A stretch of DNA of 64,000 nt from a bacterium. Its GTDB lineage: Bacteria; Patescibacteriota; Minisyncoccia; Sungbacterales; SURF-37. The translations under genes were made by a program, and so were the position numbers. How positions within the stretch are numbered: position 1 is the stretch's first letter; the number at the start of each line of letters is the position of its first letter. Positions 3,699 to 61,768 of this stretch are shown here, piece by piece. Under the pieces are notes generated by a model. It did no database searches, had not been told where the DNA came from, and saw only the letters and a program-made list of their open reading frames with translations. The DNA lies in contig JAUSHI010000009.1 of NCBI GenBank assembly GCA_030648055.1, positions 112,769-176,768 on the forward strand, written 5' to 3'.

Positions 3699-3790
3699 TA
3701 TCGCCCACCTCCTATTCTCTTTTCAAAGAAACGGTTTTACTGTATATTACCTATAGCGCATAAAAAAAGTTTTTGCAAGAGCAACATGAA

Positions 3791-3906
3791 TCCCGCACGA
3801 AATCGCGGACGCGTGTATACTATATATGAATTTTGTTAGAAAAAGTTTTATTAATAATAATTTGGAGCGCGGGATATTCTGCGTCCGCGTCCTATTTCGT
3901 ACGGGA
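3791..3906 (+). repeat. Palindromic MITE-like element, family C copy 1
   Basis: Terminal inverted repeats TCCCGCACGAAAT..ATTTCGTACGGGA, flanked by TGAA on both sides. The last A of the element plus flanking TG forms the ATG at 3906. Confidence 0.7.
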
Positions 3907-4982
3907 TGAAAGATTTTTCGTTTCCTATTTTTAAAACCAAAATTCCGGGGGTCTCCGGACGTTTTATGCTTGAAGACCCGGTAGAGCGCCGGAAATACTT
4001 TGACGCCAAAGCCGGGCCAGAGATTGAAAAGTTGCGCGGGTATTTAGAAAAAAACACCTTTTTAGGATTTATGCTTGGCCCGAAAAACTCCGGCAAGGGC
4101 ACGTATGTAAAACTTTTTATGGAGGCCGTGGGAGGAGACCGGGTGGCCCATCTCTCGGTCGGAGATATTGTACGAAATGTTCACAAAGAGTTAGTGGATG
4201 AAAAGAAAAAGAAAGAGTTAGTTGGGTTTTTGCAAAAACGATATCGGGGCTTTATTACCATTGATAAAGCCTTAAACATTATCTTGGGGCGCGACACCAA
4301 GACTCTGCTTCCCACCGAAATTATTTTAGCGCTGGCAGAGCGGGAAATAGACCGCATCGGTAAAAAAGCGATTTTTATTGACGGGTTTCCAAGGAACTTG
4401 GATCAAGTTTCTTACTCGCTTTATTTCAGGGCGCTTATCGGCTATAGGGACGACCCCGATTTTTTTGTGTTTATAGATGTTCCCGAGGCGGTAATTGATG
4501 AGCGCATGAAAACTCGCGTGGTCTGCCCGCAGTGTCAAAGCCCCAGGAATATCAAACTTCTTCGTACCAAAGAGGTTGGTTATGATTCCGCGACAAAACA
4601 ATTTTATCTCATTTGTGATAATCCGAATTGCCCCGGGTATGGGAAGGACCGCATGATTTCCAAAGAAGGGGATGAGCTCGGCATAGAGGCGGTTCGCGAC
4701 CGTATTGAAGTTGACAGAAAAGTGGCGCGTACACTTATTGACCTTAAGGGCGTGCCTCAAATATTTTTGCGAAATTCTATTCCCATTGCCGAGGCCAAAG
4801 AATATGTTGATGATTATGAGATTACACCGGCGTATCTATATGAGCTGGAGGAGGGCAAGGTTAATGTTATTGAGGAGCCGTGGACAGTAACGGATGATGA
4901 AGGCAATCTTTCGTATAGTTTGCTTCCGGTGCCGGTTGCGCTTGCTTTAATAAAAGAAACCGTTCGTGCGCTTAATCTTTAG
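3906..4982 (+). CDS. adk: Adenylate kinase-like NMP kinase, unusually long (358 aa)
   Basis: P-loop GPKNSGKGT, GDIVR, IDGFPRNLDQ, and a Cys4 LID (CPQC..CDNPNC). Has ~55-aa N-terminal and ~90-aa C-terminal extensions. Not in the usual secY-adk-map position. Confidence 0.6.
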   Translation: MKDFSFPIFKTKIPGVSGRFMLEDPVERRKYFDAKAGPEIEKLRGYLEKNTFLGFMLGPKNSGKGTYVKLFMEAVGGDRVAHLSVGDIVRNVHKELVDEKKKKELVGFLQKRYRGFITIDKALNIILGRDTKTLLPTEIILALAEREIDRIGKKAIFIDGFPRNLDQVSYSLYFRALIGYRDDPDFFVFIDVPEAVIDERMKTRVVCPQCQSPRNIKLLRTKEVGYDSATKQFYLICDNPNCPGYGKDRMISKEGDELGIEAVRDRIEVDRKVARTLIDLKGVPQIFLRNSIPIAEAKEYVDDYEITPAYLYELEEGKVNVIEEPWTVTDDEGNLSYSLLPVPVALALIKETVRALNL

Positions 4983-5140: not shown

Positions 5141-5692
5141 ATGACGGATGAACGCCATGAACAAGAACTTGGGCGGTGCACCATTGTGGTTACCTGTGCG
5201 GTGTTTCGCCGAACCCACAGTGGACTGGAAACACTAATTCTGAAACGCTCCGAAACGGAAGGCGAGGGACCGGGCCTTTGGACGGTTCCCGGAGGGAAGC
5301 TACAGCTTTGCGATCTCGGGGAAAAGGTTTCGGGCGCGTCCTCGCATAACGTCTGGATGGACGTTTTGAATCGTGCGATCTTGCGTGAGATCAGGGAAGA
5401 AACTGGTATTTTGGAGCGCGAGATCCATCCCATACTTCTCCCGTCCAGAGAAAAAATTTTCATCCGCAAGGACGGCACGCCAACGCTTGTTTTCGTTTTT
5501 TGGACTTTGAGTTATTACGGCACTGAAGTGCGGCTTGGGGAAGGCGCTACCGAGCATCGGTGGGTACGCGAGGGAGAGCTTGACGGGTACACGTTCATTG
5601 GGAACGTGAAAGACGACATTAGGGCGGCGTTCCAAGCATTTTGGGAAAGCGAGCGGGAGCTGAATCGCCCGTTTACTTGCGAGAAGGACTAA
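5141..5692 (+). CDS. Nudix hydrolase
   Basis: Nudix box remnant GGK..(insertion)..REIREETGI. GAGGAGGG RBS upstream. Confidence 0.75.
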   Translation: MTDERHEQELGRCTIVVTCAVFRRTHSGLETLILKRSETEGEGPGLWTVPGGKLQLCDLGEKVSGASSHNVWMDVLNRAILREIREETGILEREIHPILLPSREKIFIRKDGTPTLVFVFWTLSYYGTEVRLGEGATEHRWVREGELDGYTFIGNVKDDIRAAFQAFWESERELNRPFTCEKD

Positions 5693-13127: not shown

Positions 13128-13340
13128 TGACGCTCGTCATCCTGTAAAATTTTTCAACTCGGGCTCGGGACAAATACGCTTCGCGCGCTTCGCAAAACGA
13201 TTCGGAAAAATTCAAACTCAACCTCGCTTCGCTCGGGATTCAAACAGTAAATTTTTCCGGTTTTGCTCATCCGCTTCGCTATTTGTCAGCTGATCTCTCG
13301 GAATGAAAAATTTTGCAGGACGGCTCGCTTAGATGAAAAT

Positions 13341-16522: not shown

Positions 16523-16936
16523 ATGCCTTTCCCATTCAAAAATTTTATCCCGTTAGAGATAGGAAACGCCCAAGGCGTTTCCGTAGCTATGATGCTGGCA
16601 GTATATCGCCGGTGTTTTCTCTACTCTGGGCAGGATGATAAAAAAATAAGGTTTGGATCTCTAACGGGATCCATAAAAAAAGGGGAAAAATACATTATGG
16701 TTGAAAACGGCAAGCCCGAATACGTGGTCATGCATTATGATGATTATGCCGAACTTATTGAAAGAAAAAATGTTGAGAATATGAATATGGTCGGGGATAG
16801 TTCTTTTGGCTTTCCTTCTGAAATAAAAAACGTGGCAATTCGCAACGAGGACACCTTTGTCCCAAAGGCCGCGTTTTTTGGCTCTAATTTGCCGCAGGAT
16901 ATTTCTAAAATTCGTCTTGAAGATTTGCCGTTATAA
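16523..16936 (+). CDS. Hypothetical protein with a Phd/YefM-antitoxin-like segment
   Basis: KKGEKYIMVENGKPEYVVMHYDDYAELIE resembles the Phd/YefM core. The start codon is uncertain. Confidence 0.4.
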   Translation: MPFPFKNFIPLEIGNAQGVSVAMMLAVYRRCFLYSGQDDKKIRFGSLTGSIKKGEKYIMVENGKPEYVVMHYDDYAELIERKNVENMNMVGDSSFGFPSEIKNVAIRNEDTFVPKAAFFGSNLPQDISKIRLEDLPL

Positions 16937-21848: not shown

Positions 21849-22236
21849 TCTTTTCAAAAAAGAAAGCGATAAGCCCGCCGTAAAACCAAATCCAAAACCT
21901 CGCGTAAAAGAGGAGGCGAAAGAAGTTGCGGTAAAAGTAGCTCCGAAAACGGTCTTCGGCAAATATCCGCTTGGTATTTTGATTGCTCCGCGAATAACCG
22001 AAAAAGCGACCATGTTACAGAGCAACAATCAATATGTTTTTGAAGTTTCGGATAATGCCAACGCCAGTTTGATTAGGAGAGCCGTTGAGGGCAAATACGG
22101 AGTTCGTGTTCGCGGGGTAAATGTTTTGAATCAGCCCGGAAAAAAAGTCAAAACTGGCCGCCGTGAAGGATGGAGCAAGGGCTTTAAAAAGGCGATTGTT
22201 TCTCTGGAAAAAGGCCAGACCATAGATTTTACGTAA
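21841..22236 (+). CDS. rplW: 50S ribosomal protein L23 (Lys/Pro-rich N-terminal extension)
   Basis: ITEKATML..YVFEV..NA.K..I..AVE pattern. Overlaps the rplD end. Confidence 0.9.
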   Translation: MFNLFKKESDKPAVKPNPKPRVKEEAKEVAVKVAPKTVFGKYPLGILIAPRITEKATMLQSNNQYVFEVSDNANASLIRRAVEGKYGVRVRGVNVLNQPGKKVKTGRREGWSKGFKKAIVSLEKGQTIDFT

Positions 22237-22436
22237 AGGGCTTTGTCTGCGAGGTGGGCGTACATACGCGAAGCCGAGCAGGAACAAAACCTTTACCCAG
22301 CCCTTTATGCGGTAAAACCAATCTAAAATTAAAATGGAAAAAGCGGCAACATTCAAATTAAAATCAAATCCAGACAGCTTAAAGGGCTGGGTGCTGAATT
22401 TTATATTTACTCATTACATTCGTAAGTAAAATTCGC
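22237..22436 (+). repeat. Family A structured element, copy A1 (L23|L2 junction)
   Basis: Conserved blocks TAAAGGGCTTTGTC, ACAAAACCTTTACCCAGCCCTTTATGC, GCTTAAAGGGCTGGGTGCTGAATTTTATA, TAAAATTCGC-ATG. Contains a 31-codon mini-ORF at 22334..22429. Confidence 0.85.
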
Positions 22437-23255
22437 ATGAAGAAATATAACCCAACAACGCCGTCGCGGAGAAGTATGGAAAAAATAGATTTTCGCTTTT
22501 CTTCAGATGGGCCTTATAAAAAACTTACCTGCGGCCGTAAAAGGGATGTTGGCAGGAATAATCAGGGGCGCATTACGACCAGGCATAAGGGTGGCGGAGT
22601 CAAGCGGCTTTGGCGCGAGATTGATTTTTTGTATAACAAGAAAAATATTATGGCAACGGTTGAAACCGTAGAGTACGACCCGAATCGCACAAGTTTTATT
22701 GCGCGAGTTCTTTATAAAGACGGTGAGCGCCGATATGTTCTTGCTCCTGCCGGCTTTAAAGAAGGAAGCACTTTTGTTGTTTCTGAAAAAGCTCCGTTGG
22801 AGGCAGGCAACCGTTTGCCGCTTAAAAATATTCCCGTTGGAACACCTGTTTTTAATATTGAATTAAATTTAGGTAATGGAGCCGTGCTCGTTCGTTCAGC
22901 CGGCACTTCCGCGCAGATTCTTGCCGAGGAGGGTGGATATACCCAGCTTAAAATGCCTTCGGGCGAGATAAGGAAAGTGCATTCATCCAATTGGGCGACC
23001 ATTGGAAACGCATCCAACCCTGAAAGGAGTCTTATGGTTTTCGGAAACGCCGGAAGGATGAGGCGCTTGGGCGTCCGTCCGACTGTCCGAGGTTCTGTCA
23101 TGAACCCGAGAGATCATCCGTACGGCGGAGGCGAAGGTAAGCAGGTTAGGGGCACAAAGCGCCCGAAGACCATGTGGGGTAAAATCGGCAGAGGTGTTAA
23201 GACGCGAAGAAATAAGAAAACCAACGTATTTATTCTTAAGAGGAGAAGTAAATAA
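22437..23255 (+). CDS. rplB: 50S ribosomal protein L2
   Basis: 272 aa. GRNNQGRITTRHKGGG..MNPRDHPYGGGEG motifs. Confidence 0.97.
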   Translation: MKKYNPTTPSRRSMEKIDFRFSSDGPYKKLTCGRKRDVGRNNQGRITTRHKGGGVKRLWREIDFLYNKKNIMATVETVEYDPNRTSFIARVLYKDGERRYVLAPAGFKEGSTFVVSEKAPLEAGNRLPLKNIPVGTPVFNIELNLGNGAVLVRSAGTSAQILAEEGGYTQLKMPSGEIRKVHSSNWATIGNASNPERSLMVFGNAGRMRRLGVRPTVRGSVMNPRDHPYGGGEGKQVRGTKRPKTMWGKIGRGVKTRRNKKTNVFILKRRSK

Positions 23256-25757: not shown

Positions 25758-26123
25758 ATGATTCAAACGCGTTCAATGTTAAAAGTTGCCGATAATTCTG
25801 GAGCCAAACTTGTTCAGGTGATAAAAGTTTTGGGCGGCTCACGGAGGAGATACGCCGGGCTCGGTGATATTGTTGTTGTTTCAGTTAAAATTTCCGAACC
25901 GCGCAAACTCGTCAAGAAAAAGGACGTAGTTAGGGCGGTAATTGTTCGCCAACGCGCGCCTTTCAGGCGCAAAGATGGCAGCTATATTCGTTTTGACGAC
26001 AATGCTGTGGTTATTGTTGATGGGCAAGAGCCGAAAGGCGGGCGCATTTTTGGCCCCGTAGCAAGAGAACTTCGTGAACGGGGATTTGCTAAAATTATTT
26101 CACTGGCTCCGGAGGTTGTTTAA
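25758..26123 (+). CDS. rplN: 50S ribosomal protein L14
   Basis: [17 protein letters not shown] start, 121 aa. Confidence 0.97.
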
Positions 26124-26325
26124 AGGGCTTTGTCCGCTGTTTGGAGCCGCAAGCGAACAAACAGCGGTTACAAAACCTTTACCCAGCCCTCTATGCTGTT
26201 TGATTACGAGACGCAATAATTTATGAAGAAAAAACTTGTAAAAAGTAATAAACGAAATTCGGGCGGCTTAGAGGGCTGGGTGCTGAATTTTATAGTTATT
26301 CGCTTTGCTCATAAATAAAATTCGC
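26124..26325 (+). repeat. Family A structured element, copy A2 (L14|L24 junction)
   Basis: Same block order as A1. 10-bp hairpin CCGCTGTTTG/CAAACAGCGG. ACCCAGCCCTCTA pairs with TAGAGGGCTGGGT. Mini-ORF at 26223..26318. Confidence 0.85.
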
Positions 26326-26631
26326 ATGAAGATTAAAAAAGGTGATACAGTCAGAATATTATCGGGTAAAGATCGTGGTAAAAACGGCAAGGTTATTCGT
26401 GTTTTGCCGGACGAGACGCGCATTTTGGTTGAGGGAATTAATTTGAAAAAAAAGCATGTGCGTTCCAAACGGCAGGATAAAAAAGGTGAAGTTGTCTTAA
26501 TTCCCGCTTTTTTAAACGTTTCGCGATCTATGTTAGTATGCCCGAATTGCCAAAAGCCAACGCGGGTTGCCAGTAAAGTAATAGGCGATAAAAAATATCG
26601 CATGTGCAAACATTGCGATAAGGAATTTTAA
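26326..26631 (+). CDS. rplX: 50S ribosomal protein L24 with a C-terminal Cys4 zinc-ribbon
   Basis: MKIKKGDTVRILSGKDRGKNGKV KOW motif. C-terminal CPNC..CKHC. ATG 26326 is M8 of the track ORF. Confidence 0.93.
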   Translation: MKIKKGDTVRILSGKDRGKNGKVIRVLPDETRILVEGINLKKKHVRSKRQDKKGEVVLIPAFLNVSRSMLVCPNCQKPTRVASKVIGDKKYRMCKHCDKEF

Positions 26632-28346: not shown

Positions 28347-28703
28347 ATGAAGATTAAAAGTTCAAGAGAAAAAAGGATAATACGCCATAAGCGTACCAGG
28401 GCGATAATAAAAGGTACGGCCGAGAAGCCGCGGCTTTCGGTTTTCCGCTCTAATCGTCATATGTGGCTTCAGTTGATTGATGACATTTCCGGCAAAACTT
28501 TGGTTTCGGCAAATGATGCCGAAATTAAAACCAAAAAGAAAAGTGTCGGCAAAGACACGGCCTCTTTAGTCGGAGAATTGCTTGCTAAAAGAGCTGGTGA
28601 GAAAAAAATTGAACGCGTTGTTTTTGACCGGAGCGGGTACTTGTATCACGGTTTGGTACGCGAAGTGGCCGAGGGAGCAAGAAAAGGCGGTTTAAAATTT
28701 TAA
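28347..28703 (+). CDS. rplR: 50S ribosomal protein L18
   Basis: ATG 28347. RHKRTRAIIKGTAEKPRLSVFRSNRHMWLQLIDD; FDRSGYLYHG. Confidence 0.95.
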   Translation: MKIKSSREKRIIRHKRTRAIIKGTAEKPRLSVFRSNRHMWLQLIDDISGKTLVSANDAEIKTKKKSVGKDTASLVGELLAKRAGEKKIERVVFDRSGYLYHGLVREVAEGARKGGLKF

Positions 28704-28907
28704 AGGGCTTTGTCCAAAATTTAGAGTAGTCGTCAAATAGACTTTGGAAACAAAACCTTTACCCCGCCCTCTATGCTACAGTTTATAAGTAATAGATAGT
28801 TTATGTATACGGAACTTGCAAAGCACAATAAGGCAAAGCGGAATCGCTTAGAGGGCGGGGTGCTCAATTTTATAGTTATTTATTTCATTCATAAATAAAA
28901 TTCGCAT
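28704..28907 (+). repeat. Family A structured element, copy A3 (L18|S5 junction)
   Basis: Same blocks. ACCCCGCCCTCTA pairs with TAGAGGGCGGGGT, a compensatory change relative to A2. Mini-ORF at 28803..28898. Confidence 0.85.
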
Positions 28908-29396
28908 ATGCCAAGATTTGGTGGTTCAAAATTTAAGAGAGGGGGAGAGCGCGAGAAGTCGGAATATGACCAGAAAGTGCTGGATATCCGCAGGGTAGCG
29001 CGCGTGGTTGCCGGAGGGCGCCGTTTTAGCTTTAGGGCGACGGTTGTTATAGGGAATCGCAGAGGAAAAGTCGGCGTGGGTGTCGCCAAGGGCGTTGATG
29101 TAGCACAGGCCGTTGAGAAAGCCACTCATAAGGCAAGAAAATACATGGTTGTTGTTCCGTTAACTAAATGGGGTTCTATTCCCCACAGAGTGTTGGCTAA
29201 GTTTTCAAGCGCGAGGGTTCTTTTAAAGCCCGCGCCGGAGGGTTCCGGTATTATTGCCGGAGGCTCTGTTCGCGCCGTGGCTGATCTTGCTGGCATAAGG
29301 AATCTTTCTTCAAAAATTCTGTCCCGTTCGCCGAATAAATTAAATAATGCCCGCGCCGCGCTTGCCGCCTTGGCGAGTCTTAAGGCGCGAGAATAA
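28908..29396 (+). CDS. rpsE: 30S ribosomal protein S5
   Basis: 162 aa. RVARVVAGGRRFSFRATVVIGN..GSGIIAGG pattern. Confidence 0.96.
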   Translation: MPRFGGSKFKRGGEREKSEYDQKVLDIRRVARVVAGGRRFSFRATVVIGNRRGKVGVGVAKGVDVAQAVEKATHKARKYMVVVPLTKWGSIPHRVLAKFSSARVLLKPAPEGSGIIAGGSVRAVADLAGIRNLSSKILSRSPNKLNNARAALAALASLKARE

Positions 29397-29856: not shown

Positions 29857-31122
29857 ATGTTTCAAAAACTTTTGTTGATGTTTAAGCTTCCGGATTTGCG
29901 CAAAAAGATTTTTTTTGTGCTTGGGGTTCTTTTGGTGTTTCGCTTGGTCGCCGCGATCCCAGTGCCGGGGGTTGATCCCATAAGACTTAAAGCTTTTCTC
30001 GCTGGAAATCAATTTTTCGGTCTTTTGGATATTTTTTCCGGAGGCGTACTTGGTAATCTTTCCATCGTAATGCTTGGCGTTGGCCCTTACATCACCGCGT
30101 CCATTATCATGCAGCTTTTGACCATGCTTTTCCCGTCGCTTAAAGAAATGTACCAGGAGGAGGGTGAGGCGGGGCGCCAAAGGTTTAATCAATACTCCCG
30201 TCTTCTTACCGTGCCGCTTGCCCTGCTTCAGGGTTACGGGCTTTTGATCATTCTTGTCCGCCAGCAAATTATTCCCCAGCTTGGGTTTTTTGGTTTTGCA
30301 ACCAACTTGATTATTGTGACCGCCGGGACTCTCTTTCTTATGTGGCTCGGTGAGCTTATTTCTGAAAAAGGCATTGGCAACGGTATTTCTCTTTTGATTT
30401 TTGCCGGTATTGTCTCAAGAATCCCCATTGATCTTCGGCAGACTCTTTTTACTTTTGACTTTTCACAGCTTCCGTCCTACCTTGCTTTTTTGGCGGTCTC
30501 ACTCGTTGTTATCGCGGGTGTTGTGGTAATCACGGAAGGTCAGAGAAATATTCCCGTCTCCTACGCAAAGCGTATTCGCGGAAATCGCGTATACGGCGGA
30601 GTTTCAACCCATCTTCCGCTTCGCGTTAATCAGGCCGGAGTTATTCCGATTATCTTCGCGGTCTCGCTTATTCTTTTCCCGGGCCTCATTGGCAACTTTT
30701 TAGCAGTTGTTCCGAATCCCGCCGTGCAGTCTATTTCGCGCTTTTTGATTGAGCTTTTGAACAATCAGTTGCTTTACGGGTCTTTTTATTTTCTGCTTGT
30801 TTTTGCTTTTACTTATTTTTACACCGCGGTTACTTTTGATCCCCAGGCGATTGCCGATAATCTTCAAAAGCAGGGCGGTTTTATTCTCGGCATACGGCCC
30901 GGCAGGCCAACCGCTGAATATCTTTATCGCATTCTTAATCGTATTACGCTTGCCGGAGGACTTTTTTTGGGCGTAATCGCCGTCTTGCCTCTTATCGTGC
31001 AATACGCTTTCGGTCTTCGGACCCTGACCATCGGCGGCACCTCGCTTCTTATCGTGGTGTCTGTGCTTCTTGAGACAATGAAACAGATTGATGCCCAGTT
31101 GGTGATGCATGAATATGAGTGA
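29857..31122 (+). CDS. secY: Preprotein translocase subunit SecY
   Basis: 421 aa, 10-TM pattern. GVGPYITASIIMQLL, WLGELISEKGIGNGISL motifs. Confidence 0.96.
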   Translation: MFQKLLLMFKLPDLRKKIFFVLGVLLVFRLVAAIPVPGVDPIRLKAFLAGNQFFGLLDIFSGGVLGNLSIVMLGVGPYITASIIMQLLTMLFPSLKEMYQEEGEAGRQRFNQYSRLLTVPLALLQGYGLLIILVRQQIIPQLGFFGFATNLIIVTAGTLFLMWLGELISEKGIGNGISLLIFAGIVSRIPIDLRQTLFTFDFSQLPSYLAFLAVSLVVIAGVVVITEGQRNIPVSYAKRIRGNRVYGGVSTHLPLRVNQAGVIPIIFAVSLILFPGLIGNFLAVVPNPAVQSISRFLIELLNNQLLYGSFYFLLVFAFTYFYTAVTFDPQAIADNLQKQGGFILGIRPGRPTAEYLYRILNRITLAGGLFLGVIAVLPLIVQYAFGLRTLTIGGTSLLIVVSVLLETMKQIDAQLVMHEYE

Positions 31123-31207
31123 TGTCCCGATAAAAATTGAATTTGCAATTTTTATCGAGGATCCTCGATTTCGCTACGCCACTTTTTGTGGCGGCGAAAT
31201 CGGGACA
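31123..31207 (+). repeat. Palindromic MITE-like element, family B copy 1
   Basis: 9-bp perfect TIR TGTCCCGAT/ATCGGGACA. Three internal hairpins including the central palindrome ATCGAGGATCCTCGAT (31154..31169). CATGAATATGA occurs on both sides. Confidence 0.7.
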
Positions 31208-35989: not shown

Positions 35990-36496
35990 TTGTTCTTTGT
36001 TTCTATAAGCCGAATCCTGTCCTCTGCCTTACGGCAAAGGGGTGATTATCTGTCTAGGCCCGGAATTGCTTCGCGGGCTCAAGCGGGTATTCCCTATAAA
36101 AAATACTTGGGATCCCCTTGCACCAGGTAGGAGTTTTTCTTATCCCGCCAGTCGCCTGCCGGAACTGTGGGCTCTTACCCCACTCTTTTCACCTTTGACC
36201 TCCTTCGCATTGAAAACCTTTAGAGTTTTCGTAACGACGATCGGTAGTATTGTCTCTGTGACACTGTCCCGTTCTCCCTCCCCAATTTTGCACCCGAGTT
36301 ATTCAGTCGAATCAATCGCGATAAGCAAAATCATTCTTTACTGTCTATTTATCTCTGATGCAAAACTGGAGAGGGATATGGTGGCTGTTAGCCACTACCA
36401 CTTTTTTCCAGCTTAACGCTGGAAGGTGTTCGGACTTTCCTCACCAAGCACATAAAAAGTTATGTGCTTGGCGCAATCACCCGAAACAAAGAACAA
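35990..36496 (-). ncRNA. rnpB: RNase P RNA (bacterial type), unusually long at ~507 nt
   Basis: Minus strand carries GAGGAAAGTCCGAAC (CR-I/P4) and GACAGGATTCGGCTTATAG (CR-V/P4). P1 is TTGTTCTTTGTTTC/GAAACAAAGAACAA. Its own TTGCTT-17-TATACT promoter lies just upstream. Confidence 0.85.
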
Positions 36497-45815: not shown

Positions 45816-46021
45816 TTGTTTTAGATTTTAACGGTTTTCTTTATATAAGTAAGGTGTTTGTAAAATTTTTCATTGCATAACCGCAACAACAAATTCAGGA
45901 GCGCGCGATGCAAAATAGAAAAAATTTGCTTGCTTCAAATTTTTACGAAAATTTTGTGAAGCGCGTGACATAAATTTGTTTGCGGTGGAGCTGAAAAATT
46001 TTACAAATGCCGAGCGCCATT

Positions 46022-51182: not shown

Positions 51183-52109
51183 ATGGCACTAAATACGGTA
51201 AAAATCTGCGGGCATGGCCGGCAGATTAAATACTTAGAAAAATTGAAAAAGCGTGGCTTGCCTATTTCGGCGTTTCTGTTTTCGGGGAAGGATGGGGTTG
51301 GTAAAAAAACCGTCGCCTTAAATTTTATTGCCGGCCTTTTTTGTGAAGAAGGAGTATTGCCCGGAGTTTTGGCCTGCGGAGAGTGTGAAAATTGCCAAAG
51401 ATTGATCAGTGGCGCGCACCCTGATTTTTCAATATTGTCCGGGGAAGAGGAAATCGGTATTGATGAGGTAAGAGAGCTCAAGCGCCGGCTTTCGTTCTCT
51501 TCTTATTCGGGTTCGTGGAGAGGCGTGCTTGTTGATGACGCGCACCGCATGAATGAGCAGGCACAGGGGGCGCTTCTTAAAATGGTGGAGGAGCCGATAG
51601 GCAAAACACTTTTTTTCTTCGTTACATCAATGCCATATCTCCTTTTAGAAACGGTGCGCTCCAGACTTTTGGAACTTTCTTTTGGAGCCGTTTCGGACGG
51701 AGAGCTAAAGAGCTGGGCAGAAAATAATTTTGTTAAATCAAAAGGCTTAGGAGAGGTTTTTGCTGTTGCTAACGGGCGGCCGGGTAAGGTTAAGCTTTTT
51801 TTGGAAAACCCCGAAGCGTTTAAAGAGGAAAAGGTGAGGGTTTCAAAATTTGAGCCGGTTTTAAAAACTTCGCTTGCTGATCAGTTTTTATTTTCCGAAA
51901 AGCTTTTGCGCGAGGACGACAGTGAGGTCAGGAACTTTTTACAGTTTTTAATAGGTAAGGCGCGTGACCGTGTTTTGAGCGGCGGGGGCGGACCGGACGC
52001 GCGTGAAGAAGTCGGCCAGATGCTTAACCATTATTTTCAACTGGAAAACACAAATATAAACCGGCGTCTCATTATTGATTCGGCATTACTTTCGTTTAGA
52101 AATTTATGA
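51183..52109 (+). CDS. holB: DNA polymerase III delta-prime subunit
   Basis: 308 aa. FSGKDGVGKKT P-loop-like, CGECENC zinc module, VDDAHRMN. Confidence 0.85.
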   Translation: MALNTVKICGHGRQIKYLEKLKKRGLPISAFLFSGKDGVGKKTVALNFIAGLFCEEGVLPGVLACGECENCQRLISGAHPDFSILSGEEEIGIDEVRELKRRLSFSSYSGSWRGVLVDDAHRMNEQAQGALLKMVEEPIGKTLFFFVTSMPYLLLETVRSRLLELSFGAVSDGELKSWAENNFVKSKGLGEVFAVANGRPGKVKLFLENPEAFKEEKVRVSKFEPVLKTSLADQFLFSEKLLREDDSEVRNFLQFLIGKARDRVLSGGGGPDAREEVGQMLNHYFQLENTNINRRLIIDSALLSFRNL

Positions 52110-52110
52110 G

Positions 52111-52252
52111 TCCCGTACGAAATCCCTGCCTGCCGGCAGGCAGGCAGGGCGGACGCGCATATATCATATATATGAATTTTGTTCTGGGAAAATTTAGAAG
52201 TAATAATTTGGGATGCGAGATTTTCTGCGTCTGCGTCCTGTTTCGTACGGGA
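52111..52252 (+). repeat. Palindromic MITE-like element, family C copy 2
   Basis: TCCCGTACGAAAT..GTTTCGTACGGGA ends with flanks TGAG|TGAA. Carries a nested (CCTG)2/(CAGG)3 near-palindrome at 52124..52149. Its last A plus TG forms ATG 52252. Confidence 0.7.
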
Positions 52253-53343
52253 TGAAAACAATTTTAATAGCCGGTGCTGTAATGTTCGGCATTATTGTCT
52301 TAGCGATTGTTGTCCTGCCGTTTATTTTCGGCGTAACTTTTAGTGCGCCTTCCACCGCAGGGAAAGCGGATACTCAGGGCGTATTTCTTTCCGAAGACGG
52401 AGGGGCGACATGGCAGGCAAGAAATAACATAAAAGATTCTAAGCTGAAGCTTTCGGGCCTAAACATAACCGATTTTGCGATAGATTCTAAAAATAGCGGC
52501 TGGCTTTTTATGGCAACAAGTAACTCCGGCATTTGGAAAAGTGATGATGGGGGCCAGAATTGGGAGAAGGTTGTTGATAAGGCCGGCACCCTTGACCCCA
52601 AAGCTCAAGTTTTGCGGCTTGTTATTTCTAAGAAAAATTCCAATTTGTGGTTTACCGCCGTATATCAAAAAAACCGCGGCGCGGTATTAAAGAGCGAAGA
52701 CGGCGGCGAGACATTTAAAGAAGTGTATTTTGTTCCGGTGGAGCGTTTTGGAGTGTTTAACCTTGCGTATGACGATGCGGCCGGTATCGTGACCATCGTT
52801 AACGGGCAGGGTGGGCTTTTGGAGTCGCGCGACTTAGGGAAGTCTTGGAGGGTGGTTAAATGGTTTACGGACGGGCTGACCGGAATTGTCGCCGATCCCG
52901 TAGCATCTTCCATTTATTATATTTTGACCGCTAAAGGTAAAATTTTTAAGACTGCGGATCGCGGGGCGAGTTTCACGGACCTAAGTTCTAATTTTAGTTC
53001 TTTTGACAAAAGCTGGAAAAATCAAAATCTAACCATTGACCCTTTGAGCGGCACTCTTTACCTTGGCTCGGATTACGGTATTATACGCTCAAAAAACGGG
53101 GGTTTTTCATGGGAGAGCGTTCCGGTAATAATTCCACCCGAGGCTCTGCCGGTTTTAAGTATTGCTGTTAATTCCAACGATTCACGCGCATTTTTCGTAA
53201 CGGCGCAGTCGCAGATTTATAGGACGGCGGATGGCGGCGTAAATTGGTCAATTGTTCCCTCACCCATATCGGGGCGGCGGATTACCAAGTTCGTTATTGA
53301 TAAAAACGACGCCAACCGTATATATCTTATTGGCAATAAGTAA
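52252..53343 (+). CDS. Membrane-anchored BNR/Asp-box beta-propeller protein (Ycf48/sialidase-like fold)
   Basis: Start MKTILIAG (M14 of the track ORF) with a TM helix. Seven SxDxGxxW-like repeats (SEDGGATW, SDDGGQNW, SEDGGETF, SRDLGKSW, TADRGASF, SKNGGFSW, TADGGVNW). Confidence 0.75.
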   Translation: MKTILIAGAVMFGIIVLAIVVLPFIFGVTFSAPSTAGKADTQGVFLSEDGGATWQARNNIKDSKLKLSGLNITDFAIDSKNSGWLFMATSNSGIWKSDDGGQNWEKVVDKAGTLDPKAQVLRLVISKKNSNLWFTAVYQKNRGAVLKSEDGGETFKEVYFVPVERFGVFNLAYDDAAGIVTIVNGQGGLLESRDLGKSWRVVKWFTDGLTGIVADPVASSIYYILTAKGKIFKTADRGASFTDLSSNFSSFDKSWKNQNLTIDPLSGTLYLGSDYGIIRSKNGGFSWESVPVIIPPEALPVLSIAVNSNDSRAFFVTAQSQIYRTADGGVNWSIVPSPISGRRITKFVIDKNDANRIYLIGNK

Positions 53344-61093: not shown

Positions 61094-61214
61094 TCCCGTT
61101 AGAAGCCGTGGTCGCAGTATCGGAAATACATATTTAGTAATAGATGAAAAAGAAAATTTTAGAGTATCAACATAATAACTGGCAGGCGCTGACCGCGACC
61201 TGCTTCTAACGGGA
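61094..61214 (+). repeat. Palindromic MITE-like element, family C copy 3
   Basis: TCCCGTTAGAAGC..GCTTCTAACGGGA ends, flanked by TGAA|TGAA. Its last A plus TG forms ATG 61214. Confidence 0.65.
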
Positions 61215-61768
61215 TGAATGAAAAAGAACTGCGCATCTCTCGGGCAACAAAAAGAAAAATAATAAAACGTCTTGGCATATTGGCGGTAATAGTTTTAGTA
61301 TTCGCGGGTTTTACGTTTTGGCTCATCATTTATTTTTCAAATAGCGGAAAGAACCTGCCCGGTACCCTGTATCCCCAAACAGGCAGGACTCACATTCTCG
61401 CTGGCACTCATAACCCAAACTATAATTCTAATCCCCCGACTTCCGGAAATCATTGGGCGAATCCAGCCGATTGGGGTGTATATGATAAGGAGCTTCCTGA
61501 CGAGGAGGTGATTCACAATTTAGAGCATGGCGGGATATGGATTTCCTATAAGCCGGATATTTCAGAGGACATTCGCAAAAAACTTGAAGGGTTTTACCAA
61601 AAATTTGGAAGCCATATTATTATTACTCCGCGCTCAGCAAATGACGCCGATATCGCTCTTGCCGCCTGGCAGAGACTGGATAAATTTAATGTAGCGGATT
61701 ATTCGGATGAGCGCGTGGACAAGTTTATAAAAGCATATAGAAATAAGGGACCGGAATACGTTCCCTGA
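61214..61768 (+). CDS. DUF3105-like membrane-anchored protein
   Basis: TM helix, PPTSGNHW, HNLEHGGIWISY pattern. Confidence 0.7.
   Translation: MNEKELRISRATKRKIIKRLGILAVIVLVFAGFTFWLIIYFSNSGKNLPGTLYPQTGRTHILAGTHNPNYNSNPPTSGNHWANPADWGVYDKELPDEEVIHNLEHGGIWISYKPDISEDIRKKLEGFYQKFGSHIIITPRSANDADIALAAWQRLDKFNVADYSDERVDKFIKAYRNKGPEYVP

Follow-up and report, generated by a model that had tools for sequence, protein, structure and literature searches.

Several kinds of short bacterial repeat are moved by enzymes that they do not encode, or persist in genes without disabling them. In REPINs, doublets of REP sequences form hairpins that are mobilised by RAYT, a single-copy IS200-like Y1 (HUH) transposase. 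The Rickettsia palindromic elements (RPE) are selfish palindromes of ~100-150 bp that are tolerated in essential genes of a reduced-genome lineage. In integron attC sites, as in the single-stranded CTX-phage DNA that is recombined by XerCD, a folded hairpin of 60-140 nt combines a conserved base stem with a variable apex; extrahelical bases on one strand set the polarity, the reaction is orientation-specific, and the enzyme comes from outside the inserted unit. Repeats may also lie close to gene starts: the Correia (CREE, Neisseria), ERIC and RUP MITEs are often found 5' of genes and can influence their expression, and the Neisseria REP2 and Borrelia IR repeats sit immediately 5' of genes, to which they bring their own ATG, promoter and ribosome-binding site (PMC3184786, a review that also cites Ogata 2000 on the RPEs).

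Here we present an apparently undescribed and very large family of ~120-base hairpin-forming mobile insertions in the ultra-small Patescibacteria (CPR), termed family C, members of which lie in a stretch of 64,000 nucleotides (the window) from a bacterium of the Sungbacterales (Patescibacteriota; Minisyncoccia; SURF-37; GenBank assembly GCA_030648055.1, contig JAUSHI010000009.1, positions 112,769 to 176,768 of the forward strand). A sequence-only reading of the window had pointed to three MITE-like elements inserted in start codons and regenerating them. The full-text literature that we searched, the coverage of which is incomplete, contained no description of such elements, and an earlier description is possible.

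Family C in the window

The three elements of the sequence-only reading, C1 to C3, lie exactly where it had placed them and all three are genuine, but it had overlooked a fourth, C4 (Table 1). All four have 13-bp terminal arms of the form TCCCG....CGGGA, and the arm-pair pattern yields these 4 copies in the window as against 0 in 100 shuffles. At C1 (arms TCCCGCACGAAAT/ATTTCGTACGGGA), C2 (TCCCGTACGAAAT/GTTTCGTACGGGA) and C3 (TCCCGTTAGAAGC/GCTTCTAACGGGA), the flanks read caacATGAA[C1]TGAAAG, tttATGAG[C2]TGAAAA and gttATGAA[C3]TGAATG, respectively. As had been proposed, the terminal A of each element and the flanking TG together form the ATG of the downstream gene, the three ORFs starting on the last base of the element, and an orphan ATGA(A/G) is left on the other flank.

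Table 1. Family C copies, their orphan start codons and adjoining genes (positions are those of the window)
Feature	Position	Strand	Remarks
Copy C1	3791..3906	+	116 nt; P1 arms 3791-3803 and 3894-3906; IRR-side motif GCGTCCGCGTCCT
Orphan ATGAA 5' of C1	3786..3790	+	Original start codon and two bases; TGAA again at 3907-3910
ADK-like nucleoside monophosphate kinase gene	3906..4982	+	A of ATG is the final base of C1
Copy C4	16547..16670	-	14-bp arms ATCCCGTTAGAGAT and ATCTCTAACGGGAT; polarity marker on minus strand
C5, possible distant relative	31123..31207	.	Core TGTCCCGAT..ATCGGGACA; three internal hairpins
DNA pol III delta'-like ORF, upstream of C2	51183-52109		Stop codon inside the left ATGA of C2
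Orphan ATGAG 5' of C2	52106..52110	+	Its TGA (52107-52109) is the stop of the upstream ORF
Copy C2	52111..52252	+	142 nt; C1 sub-family
GC-rich palindrome CCTGCCTGCCGGCAGGCAGGCAGG nested in C2	52125..52148	.	24 nt; missing from C1 and L127 (alignment)
BNR/Sortilin-type repeat protein gene	52252..53343	+	Begins at the regenerated ATG
Orphan ATGAA 5' of C3	61089..61093	+	TGAA again at 61215-61218
Copy C3	61094..61214	+	121 nt; major sub-family; left TCCCGTTAGAAGC-CGTGGTCGC, right GACCGCGACCT-GCTTCTAACGGGA
DUF3105 gene	61214..61768	+	Begins at the regenerated ATG

C1 is 89% identical to an element at a different gene in another genome, L127. C2 is a C1-type element with a nested 24-nt GC palindrome, and the L047 element has a similar palindrome nested in the same place. 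At the gene behind C2, the regenerated ATG gives a BNR protein of 363 aa, against 362 aa in its orthologues, and is therefore the true start. NCBI models this protein with 376 aa and a start inside C2; gene callers evidently place some starts inside the element, and this protein is annotated 13 residues too long.

C4 lies between divergent genes, in reversed polarity and off a start codon. It has kept an orphan ATGGA (16670-16674, minus strand), but on the gene side the A of the element is followed by TAAA, and there is no matching repeat; it is a decayed or rearranged copy. C5, a possible distant relative, lies directly 3' of the SecY stop codon (31120-31122), is flanked by a 15-nt direct repeat (CATGAATATGAGTGA / CATGAATATGAATAG) and has arms that do not fit the family arm consensus. 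The secY-adk junction is occupied by true family copies in other genomes (L067).

Distribution in Patescibacteria

A flank-free scan for the arm-pair pattern in contigs representing one genome per species gave at least 135 copies at no fewer than 119 loci, and nearly all of these listed copies are in Patescibacteria. A flank-blind probe consisting of the right arm only recovered at least 109 unique sites from metagenomes. By our estimate, ~0.03 random matches are expected in the whole genome collection. There are tens of copies per genome. The genes that they adjoin are diverse and mutually unrelated, with just 14 small clusters among 114 host proteins; they include housekeeping genes and form no cassette arrays. 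The ribosomal-protein/secY region, which is highly expressed, shows an enrichment of copies. Carriage by phages was rejected, there being a single match in 2.9 million viral contigs.

At gathering score, Rfam 15 gives only RNase P and two tRNAs; the elements themselves have no match at that score and only chance-level ones at E up to 10. A known structured RNA family (riboswitch, leader or ribozyme) was rejected on this ground and on that of the unrelated host genes.

Insertion at start codons with variable repeat and fixed polarity

When flanks are tabulated after a search with the arms, the enrichment at start codons that the first three copies had suggested is borne out. In both samples, the terminal A and flanking TG give an ATG or ORF in 84-98% of copies: an ATG with an ORF of at least 50 codons is present in 114 of the 135 listed arm-pair copies, and the listed metagenome sites have a regenerated ATG in 107 cases out of 109 and an ORF in 101 out of 109. 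The first base of the orphan tracks start-codon usage (A 101, G 9, T 2, C 2), and the target logo is A-T-G-R-R. In a crude gene census of the window, ATGRR occurs at 27 ORF starts, at 82 places in non-coding DNA and at 406 within ORFs, so that a preference for ATGRR does not by itself account for the positions of the copies; intergenic non-start ATGRR are ~3x commoner than start sites, yet hardly any carries a copy, young copies included. The exclusive use of start codons could owe much to selection, because lethal intragenic insertions are never seen and neutral intergenic copies may vanish fast in streamlined genomes.

The repeat that flanks the element is usually TGRR, with a modal length of 4 nt (80 of 114 genome copies and 60 of 109 metagenome sites) and further lengths of 0, 3, 5, 6 and 7 nt, the right junction being fixed throughout. 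It differs by site (TGAA, TGGA, TGAG, TGCG and others), with a preference for TGAA, then TGGA, then TGAG. Since it differs even between sister copies that are 99% identical, which carry TGGA versus TGAA, the repeat is derived from the target. No position of the element co-varies with it, and on this basis we rejected guide-type targeting of the IS200/IS605 kind. In 3 of 41 young copies the left and right repeats mismatch by one base. There is also a class with zero repeat, whose left flank has TAA as its last bases; in 9 of 11 cases this is exactly where a long upstream ORF stops. The 4-bp target duplication of the sequence-only reading is thus correct as to its origin and commonest length, but the length ranges from 0 to 7 nt and both the right junction and the polarity are fixed; likewise, its expectation of direct repeats at further copies holds for most of them but not for C4 or the TAATG class.

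An IRR-specific probe gives a polarity of 125:2 (~99% in the same direction relative to the gene); the ratio is 40:0 in the CGCGRTCG sub-family and 88 vs ~7 overall, and at least 5-7 copies of reverse polarity have intact repeats. Because both termini end in ..CGGGA, selection for regeneration of the ATG cannot fix the polarity. Several other readings were considered and rejected. An outward promoter as the cause of the polarity is contradicted by the promoter-like matches, 31 sense versus 27 antisense among 114 copies, the plausible promoter TTGTTx-17-AATAAT being confined to the C1/C2/L127 lineage. If the orphan ATG served for translational coupling or an in-frame extension, a frame bias would be expected, but the frames are used 43/28/26 and the uORF that begins there ends within the element in 92 of 97 cases. 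Nor are leaderless genes specifically targeted: 20% of hit genes, versus 14% of control ORFs, have a -10-like TANNNT with its end 7 nt ahead of the start, and this motif is a trait of the phylum and not of the target.

Conserved ends and predicted fold

The elements are usually 114-123 nt long (full span noted, 114-142 nt) and consist of two conserved inverted ends of ~22-26 nt that enclose an unconstrained, A/T-rich interior. The left end, IRL, reads TCCCGTTAGARRY+CGCGRTCGC, and the right end, IRR, reads GAYCGCG+AYCT+RYYTCTAACGGGA, 4 bases more than IRL; the arms pair perfectly over 13 bp or imperfectly over ~22-26 bp. Instead of the hairpin of ~50 bp that had been envisaged, the element is predicted to fold, as RNA or single-stranded DNA, into a 13-bp stem P1, then, beyond a 3'-side bulge of 4 nt, a 7-9-bp stem P2, and lastly the variable A/T-rich interior. 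Elements of the window fold more stably than their shuffles (z from -3.3 to -7.5). The two arms co-vary, as the earlier reading had noted from three copies: at arm positions 6-8 and 11-13, 3-10% of pairs are non-Watson-Crick, as against ~50% if the arms were independent. There are also conserved asymmetric positions, T at -14 (99/114) and C at -15 (96/114). G.U pairs exceed A.C pairs in P2 (18-30 versus 3-6), whereas P1 has 10 of each; as evidence for a single-strand structure these counts are weak and mixed.

The interior cannot be aligned between sub-families and is A-rich on the sense strand. C1, C2 and the L127 elements have in common TTGTTx-17-AATAAT, with a variable spacer. In family C as a whole, promoter and SD signals are not a general feature, and the orphan ATG has been well preserved. 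An internal ATGRR motif was dismissed, being accounted for by base composition and shared ancestry.

Empty sites, recent copies and the search for an enzyme

Comparison with relatives supports the self-healing insertion into ATGAA-type starts that had been postulated, and the same anatomy recurs in hundreds of public copies. The C1 site is empty in the closest relative, L001 (89% aa identity), where it reads ..gcaagggtagATGAAAAATTTT.., and the junction orthologous to that of C2 is empty in L128 and L129 (..ATGAAAACAATT..); the empty sites contain one ATGAA. As the L128 and L129 sites show, the ancestral state at C2 was an ATGA stop/start overlap. In L127 the corresponding holB-BNR junction is filled, by an element 87% identical to that of the window, despite third codon positions between the two genomes that are saturated at 48%. 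This junction is either old and constrained or has been repeatedly invaded, and both fit equally. Elsewhere, copies of 95-99% identity occur at different genes, some within one contig, and a single start codon can carry two elements in tandem, from different sub-families (L018, L097).

None of the ~260 copies exceeds 200 nt with an ORF, which leaves no element-encoded enzyme among them. As the sequence-only reading had remarked of its three copies, no transposase is linked to any copy examined, and no autonomous IS with the same termini was found among the ~260 copies or in ~1.6 Mb of DNA flanking the retrieved loci. Candidates for such a partner were rejected in turn: arm pairs 200-5000 nt apart all proved to be separate small copies, unpaired arms to be decayed or short copies, and the DNA between inverted copies to hold ordinary genes. 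Genes of the Y1_Tnp/RAYT-like type are enriched near copies (10 in 1.59 Mb; none in the window) and have >7600 homologues in the phylum, where they are syntenic and apparently single-copy. They are flanked by short hairpins of their own, e.g. TACAAGGTTCAACCTTGTA, that are different from and unrelated to the family arms; despite their enrichment near copies, they are on this account no more than an unsupported candidate for the cognate enzyme.

Proposed mechanism and alternatives

We favour, with a probability of roughly 0.6, the reading of family C as a non-autonomous, non-coding DNA insertion of Patescibacteria that is mobilised in trans and integrates in a polar fashion between the A and the TG of the start codon. 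The element would spread by copy-and-paste and integrate with a single polarity. Its IRR end would be joined to the TG, with the terminal A of the element becoming the A of ATG, and GTG and TTG starts would likewise be turned into ATG. The IRL end would be joined a few bases downstream, usually 4, giving rise to the orphan ATGRR and the direct repeat TGRR, while at TAATG stop/start overlaps no repeat would be formed. As both the downstream start and the overlapping upstream stop survive, the insertion is tolerated, housekeeping genes included. We infer that integration is directed, being specific in sequence and polarity, rather than random and then selected. We also suggest, more tentatively, that the enzyme handles the folded hairpin, with the asymmetric bulge setting the polarity, in a manner akin to REPIN/RAYT or attC and not by a classical DDE cut.

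The terminal inverted repeats, the many copies, the empty sites and the direct repeat of mostly 4 nt would equally suit a classical MITE. Some IS families produce 3-5-bp duplications, and a DDE transposase whose gene lies elsewhere, being rare or on another replicon, could make ~4-bp staggered cuts at TGRR in either orientation, with purifying selection and rapid deletion of neutral DNA leaving the copies that rebuild a start; the reverse-polarity copies with intact repeats indicate that both orientations can occur. However, such a transposase should not produce so lopsided a polarity from two termini with the same ..CGGGA end, nor a repeat of varying length at a fixed right junction with a systematic zero-repeat class at TAATG, nor should it spare the commoner intergenic ATGRR, which even young copies hardly ever occupy; the autonomous partner, too, is missing from the ~260 copies and their flanks. 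A classical DDE MITE is at odds with the variable repeat, the fixed polarity and the exclusive use of start codons, and we regard this alternative as unlikely. It is rather improbable, too, that the family spreads with no transposase at all or by means of a host enzyme, either a host tyrosine recombinase or HUH enzyme recombining the folded hairpin with a short asymmetric TGRR core, as at attC sites or with CTX-phage DNA, or replication switching template on the ATGRR microhomology at either side of a donor copy. The repeat would then be the required homology and the polarity inherited, which explains the fixed polarity, the variable repeat down to zero at TAATG, the restriction to TGAA > TGGA > TGAG with their single-transition differences, the one-base mismatches in young copies, and the conserved asymmetric bulge beside a variable apex in an element that encodes no enzyme; the abundance of Y1_Tnp/RAYT-like genes and their enrichment near copies also speak for the host-enzyme route. 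Yet the 99%-identical sisters with different repeats call for tolerance of mismatches, the hairpins beside the Y1 genes are unrelated to the arms, the arms, compared by eye, are unlike the attC R-box order or dif, five bases are a very small homology for template switching between distant loci, and the restriction to start codons is left unexplained.

Much the least probable of these alternatives is that family C is primarily a functional leader module 5' of genes and not a mobile parasite: selection would retain a structured RNA or DNA at gene starts, e.g. to control translation initiation or mRNA processing, and the module would now and then be copied to new genes. It would account for the 87% identity of the holB-BNR elements of the window and L127 in the face of saturated neutral sites, for a polarity that is fixed relative to the transcript, for the sense-strand G.U excess in P2 and the A-rich sense interior, for the preservation of the orphan ATG, for the TTGTTx-17-AATAAT common to C1, C2 and L127, and for the enrichment in the ribosomal-protein/secY region. 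Against it stand the sister genomes with empty sites (L128 versus L127), the unrelated host genes, the interior that defies alignment between sub-families, the near-equal promoter matches on the two strands and the lack of an Rfam match; moreover, the target-derived repeat and the tandem double insertions are hallmarks of insertion.

Returning to the trans-mobilised polar insertion, a transcribed element would form a structured leader with the AUG at its base, and translation of the uORF from the orphan AUG could melt the stem. Since ~20% of the hit genes look leaderless, insertion would in these cases give a previously leaderless mRNA a structured leader, itself beginning with an AUG. A bolder and more doubtful proposal is that of a selfish element that homes to starts as such (ATG, GTG or TTG) across the superphylum, enzyme-less and offering its hairpin to a host or RAYT-like ssDNA enzyme, with the outcome that a sizeable fraction of Patescibacteria genes (~6% in the window) have a hairpin of 120 nt that separates the start codon from the signals that originally drove their expression. 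If so, translation initiation at these genes would be unusual, for example through melting of the stem by the uORF, processing of the hairpin or initiation of the leaderless type.

If our main reading holds, family C is the most target-precise small bacterial insertion known to us, with a junction that always lies between bases 1 and 2 of the start codon, in one orientation, at hundreds of unrelated genes and in many lineages of Patescibacteria. With the start codon rebuilt and overlapping stops preserved, it would be a near-harmless parasite of a streamlined genome, and it raises the question of the molecular feature by which a DNA insertion recognises start codons. In practical terms, contigs of Patescibacteria might be recognised by the conserved 13-bp arms, which also offer a possible way into the search for the enzyme.

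Comparison with known systems

Family C agrees with MITEs in being short and non-coding, with inverted repeats, presence/absence polymorphism and multiple similar copies; it departs from them in that the retrieved loci have no cognate autonomous IS and insertion is not in either orientation. An intron is made less likely by the unconserved interior and by the target-derived repeat. With the Correia/CREE, ERIC and RUP elements it has in common a short length, terminal inverted and flanking direct repeats, the lack of a transposase and long RNA hairpins. Those elements, however, produce TA duplications, occur at scattered intergenic sites in either orientation, and are not reported to lie in start codons or to rebuild them, whereas in family C the repeat is variable and the polarity fixed. 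REP2 brings a complete expression signal and has not been described as a hairpin inserted between copies of a start codon; family C, in contrast, contributes a single base of the ATG, its A, and lacks a general promoter or SD signal.

Among elements linked to single-stranded DNA, the IS200/IS605-derived PATEs insert without duplication on the 3' side of four or five fixed bases, and their guide bases co-vary with a right-end cleavage site that the element encodes; in family C, sister copies have different repeats on both sides, covariation is absent and the empty sites hold a single ATGAA. Sites of the attC type, at the 3' ends of gene cassettes arrayed beside intI, have at the hairpin base the core R''/R', RYYYAAC...GTTRRRY, which is not followed by the arms TCCCGTTAGA...TCTAACGGGA; in these the order is reversed, GTTAGA preceding TCTAAC. 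Further, unlike attC and CTX, the mobile unit is the hairpin alone and not a cassette, and its targets are hundreds of starts and not one attI or dif. REPINs are extragenic, are not tied to start codons and lack target duplication, whereas family C sits on starts with a TGRR repeat; and copies of the cognate REP lie on either side of a RAYT gene, while the Y1 genes here are flanked by unrelated short hairpins. The likeness to REPINs lies in the size of ~100-120 nt, the inverted end units of ~22-26 nt around a poorly conserved spacer of ~65-70 nt within one hairpin, the non-autonomous and non-coding nature with no IS sharing the ends, and the presence of RAYT-like Y1_Tnp genes in the phylum. 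Finally, RPEs lie in frame within coding sequence and are translated, whereas family C lies outside the ORF and heals the start; both, though, are palindromic selfish insertions that preserve the function of the gene.

Family C elements in the window

Re-reading of the sequence bears out the positions of elements C1, C2 and C3 of family C, the ~120-nt hairpin-forming insertions on start codons (see table). Their terminal 13-bp arms start with TCCCG and end with CGGGA, an orphan ATGA(A/G), read as the stranded original start, precedes each element and TGAA follows it, and in all three the terminal A together with the flanking TG is the start of a long ORF, as the sequence-only reading had proposed. 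While these three copies stand, its count of three does not: a degenerate arm-pair pattern that ignores the flanks, TCCCGYWMGARRY-N88-118-RYYTCKWRCGGGA, matched four times in the window against none in 100 shuffles, recovering the overlooked copy C4. The DNA polymerase III delta'-like gene upstream of C2 ends in a TGA that is part of the left ATGA of C2. The relatives of the ADK-like protein are found in Parcubacteria-type Patescibacteria, Sungbacteria and others. The public model of the BNR-type protein (376 aa) begins at an ATG within C2, while its orthologues are of 362 aa and begin at the position matching the regenerated ATG; family C elements can mislead gene callers. Just inside the left arm of C2 lies a nested 24-nt GC-rich palindrome, CCTGCC..GGCAGG, which recurs at the same position in a family C copy of a different genome (L047, about 5192-5215) and points to an insertion of even smaller size or to a variant of the lineage.

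Features located in the window
Feature	Position	Remark
C1	3791-3906	family C
C2	52111-52252	family C
C3	61094-61214	family C
C4	16547-16670	family C
ADK-like ORF	3906-4982	opened by C1 terminal A + TG
BNR/Sortilin-type protein ORF	52252-53343	opened by C2 terminal A + TG
DUF3105 ORF	61214-61768	opened by C3 terminal A + TG
Q7R91_02775	52213-53343	public BNR-type protein model
Nested palindrome	52125-52148	in C2
~205-nt repeats	22220-22437, 26118-26330, 28703-28913	between ribosomal-protein genes
Third hairpin family	13140-13320, 45857-46007	16-17-nt arms
Hairpin with three internal stem-loops	31123-31207	directly 3' of SecY stop
RNase P RNA match	35990-36492	minus strand

The window holds other repeats as well. 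Copies of a second, ~205-nt family start at the upstream stop codon (TAAAGGGCTTTGTC), continue with a hairpin ACCCAGCCCTCTATGC..GCTTAGAGGGCTGGGT and then GCTGAATTTTATAG, and finish ..AAAATTCGCAT(G) at the following start codon; the family may represent a further intergenic insertion of the stop-to-start type. In a third hairpin family the arms read T(C/T)TGTAAAATTTTTCA..TGAAAAATTTT(G/A)CA(G/A)A, with TG after the right end of both copies (..CAGGA-TG and ..ACAAA-TG). The hairpin following SecY has the core TGTCCCGAT..ATCGGGACA and is flanked by a 15-nt direct repeat (13/15 identical); no adk follows secY here, and the secY-adk junction bears true family C copies in other Patescibacteria. The match to RNase P RNA includes every one of the 367 model positions but extends over 503 nt, so that the gene seems to carry ~135 extra bases.

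Distribution and position on start codons

In contigs of one genome per species, the flank-free pattern yielded at least 119 loci with at least 135 copies including those of the window (first set), ~0.03 chance matches being expected by our own estimate. Among the matches listed, the hosts are almost all Saccharibacteria, Paceibacterota/Parcubacteria groups, Levyibacteria, Kazan, Kerfeldbacteria and similar lineages. Four high-GC matches outside Patescibacteria are without any family C feature and probably reflect chance, and viral contigs gave a single match in 2.9 million. Judged from these matches, family C is huge and specific to one phylum. For metagenomes we used a probe made up of the right arm and the adjoining 7 bases that mark polarity, GCGTCCTRTTTCGTACGGGA (second set; at least 127 matches at at least 109 unique sites), which reads the right end only and is thus blind to flanks, left arm and length.

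Among the matches listed, the ATG made by the terminal A plus TG starts an ORF of ≥50 codons in 114 of 135 first-set copies, the remainder being upstream members of tandem pairs, contig-end copies, chance matches and decayed copies. In the unbiased second set, again among the matches listed, ATG is regenerated at 107 of 109 sites, and at 101 there follows an ORF that is ≥50 codons long or open to the contig end. This wider search for the terminal repeats with tabulated flanks, proposed earlier as a check, extends the start-codon enrichment far beyond the window. The left-flank consensus is A-T-G-R-R, and the base preceding the flanking repeat (A 101, G 9, T 2, C 2 among the first-set matches listed) tracks start-codon usage rather than base composition, so that GTG and TTG starts are also targeted and turned into ATG. 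The host genes are diverse, with 114 proteins giving just 14 small clusters; the ribosomal-protein/secY region is over-represented (S5 in 11, SecY in 10 and L6 in 9 of ~240 loci).

Empty sites and moved copies

Relatives provide the empty sites that had been suggested for comparison. In locus L001, which holds the nearest relative to the ADK-like gene (89% amino-acid identity), the homologous leader has an empty C1 site (..agtttttgcaagggtagATGAAAAATTTTCC..), and the holB-BNR junction occupied by C2 is empty in L128 (71%) and L129 (64%), with the predicted ATGA overlap. The same junction in L127 (73%) holds a 116-nt element 89% identical to C1 and 87% to C2. In L126 a different 235-nt insert (1266-1500) follows an orphan ATGA; its arms, CCACAGTACTAAATTTCGC..GCGAAATTAGTACGGGG, resemble family C loosely, and the gene's ATG lies 50 nt past the right arm. 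With the gene tree ((L126,L127),L128),window,L129 and saturation of third codon positions when the window is compared with these loci, the element either entered once, was held under constraint and underwent precise loss in L128, or belongs to a circulating lineage that reached this junction on two occasions. A metagenome sub-family with many 95-99%-identical copies at different genes is direct evidence of recent copy-and-paste; near-identical pairs also occur on single contigs (L140, 99%; L185, 97%), and in L018 and L097 two unlike sub-family members stand in tandem on one start codon.

Structure, flanking repeat and polarity

The elements in the window fold more stably than shuffled controls (z -3.3 to -7.5). 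The continuous ~50-bp helix envisaged earlier gives way to a predicted 13-bp closing stem, a second stem of 7-9 bp with a 4-nt bulge on the 3' side between them, and an A/T-rich interior that varies. The ends of the element differ: on the gene side there are four additional bases, AYCT, and among the first-set matches listed 99 of 114 copies have T at -14 and 96 have C at -15. Among the matches listed, the flanking repeat is of 4 nt in 80/114 (first set) and 60/109 (second set), ranking TGAA > TGGA > TGAG. Since 99%-identical sister copies differ in it on both sides (TGGA versus TGAA) and we found no element position covarying with it, the repeat derives from the target. The proposed 4-bp target duplication thus survives in its origin and usual length, although repeats of 3, 5, 6 and 7 nt and a systematic no-repeat class also occur. 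In the latter the left flank ends in TAA, where a long upstream ORF stops exactly in 9 of 11 cases, indicating that the element splits a TAATG stop/start overlap between its shared A and the TG. Taken together, this spread of lengths implies a fixed right junction, element A to TG, and a variable left one. Polarity is near-absolute: the gene lies on the marked side in 125 of 127 second-set matches listed, in 40:0 in the CGCGRTCG sub-family, and in 88 versus ~7 overall.

Mechanism and alternatives

We posit, with a probability of about 0.6, that family C elements are non-autonomous DNA, are mobilised in trans and integrate in one direction between A and TG of start codons; insertion would be tolerated as the start codon is rebuilt and overlapping stop codons are kept. 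Selection certainly contributes, because lethal intragenic insertions cannot be seen. Of the ATGRR sites in the window, 27 are at ORF starts, 82 in non-coding DNA and 406 within ORFs, so that a preference for ATGRR with loss of intragenic insertions is alone insufficient for the start-codon exclusivity, and, CGGGA being common to both termini, polarity cannot be selected through ATG regeneration. An enzyme acting on the folded hairpin, with REPIN/RAYT-like or attC-like logic, is our tentative inference: it agrees with a right junction that stays fixed while the repeat varies, with the near-absolute polarity and with the conserved asymmetric bulge beneath a variable apex, features that a symmetric DDE cut fits less well.

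As had been remarked of the window copies, no transposase accompanies the element: none of ~260 copies is coding or long. Y1_Tnp (IS200-like) genes weakly similar to REP-associated tyrosine transposases have >7600 homologues in Patescibacteria (~219 aa; conserved synteny, e.g. rpsB, Y1, prfA-rpmE) and are over-represented in loci with the element (10 in 1.59 Mb). Each is flanked on both sides by its own short, lineage-specific perfect hairpin, to which the family C arms are unrelated; hence these genes remain a lead rather than the identified partner. Such hairpins (e.g. TACAAGGTTCAACCTTGTA or ACTTGGGTGC..GCACCCAAGT) have one more copy within the gene (L250-L260, L045, L021, L096, L121, L132, L222), and the whole looks like a domesticated REP/RAYT-type system.

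On the mRNA, insertion would give the order orphan AUG, hairpin, true AUG at the stem base. A -10-like box ends 7 nt before the orphan start in ~20% of target genes versus 14% of control ORFs, so that many such transcripts would start with the orphan AUG. Across L006-L249, about 14% of crudely called control ORFs have a TATAAT-like hexamer whose end lies exactly 7 nt ahead of the start codon, so that leaderless transcripts would be common in these genomes. Neither beside the regenerated ATG nor ahead of the orphan ATG was a Shine-Dalgarno-like signal found. The uORF opened by the latter stops inside the element (92/97); its translation could open the stem so that the true AUG becomes accessible, or the stem could be processed. 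Coupling through this uORF was rejected, there being no in-frame extension or frame bias, as were a general outward promoter across family C copies and a match to any Rfam family.

Comparison with known elements

Tested against the defining features of known element families, family C lacks several. In form it is closest to REPINs and bacterial MITEs such as Correia and ERIC, and in life-style to the Rickettsia palindromic elements, which are tolerated within essential genes. To our knowledge, neither these nor Neisseria REP2 and the Borrelia IR repeats are described as start-codon-seated, regenerating and of fixed polarity, and we found no published description of such elements in the full-text literature, as far as its incomplete coverage extends. 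Neisseria REP2 and the Borrelia IR repeats come nearest in that both supply an ATG (PMC3184786). We rate family C as a small non-autonomous palindromic insertion of a known kind, with an unprecedented target.
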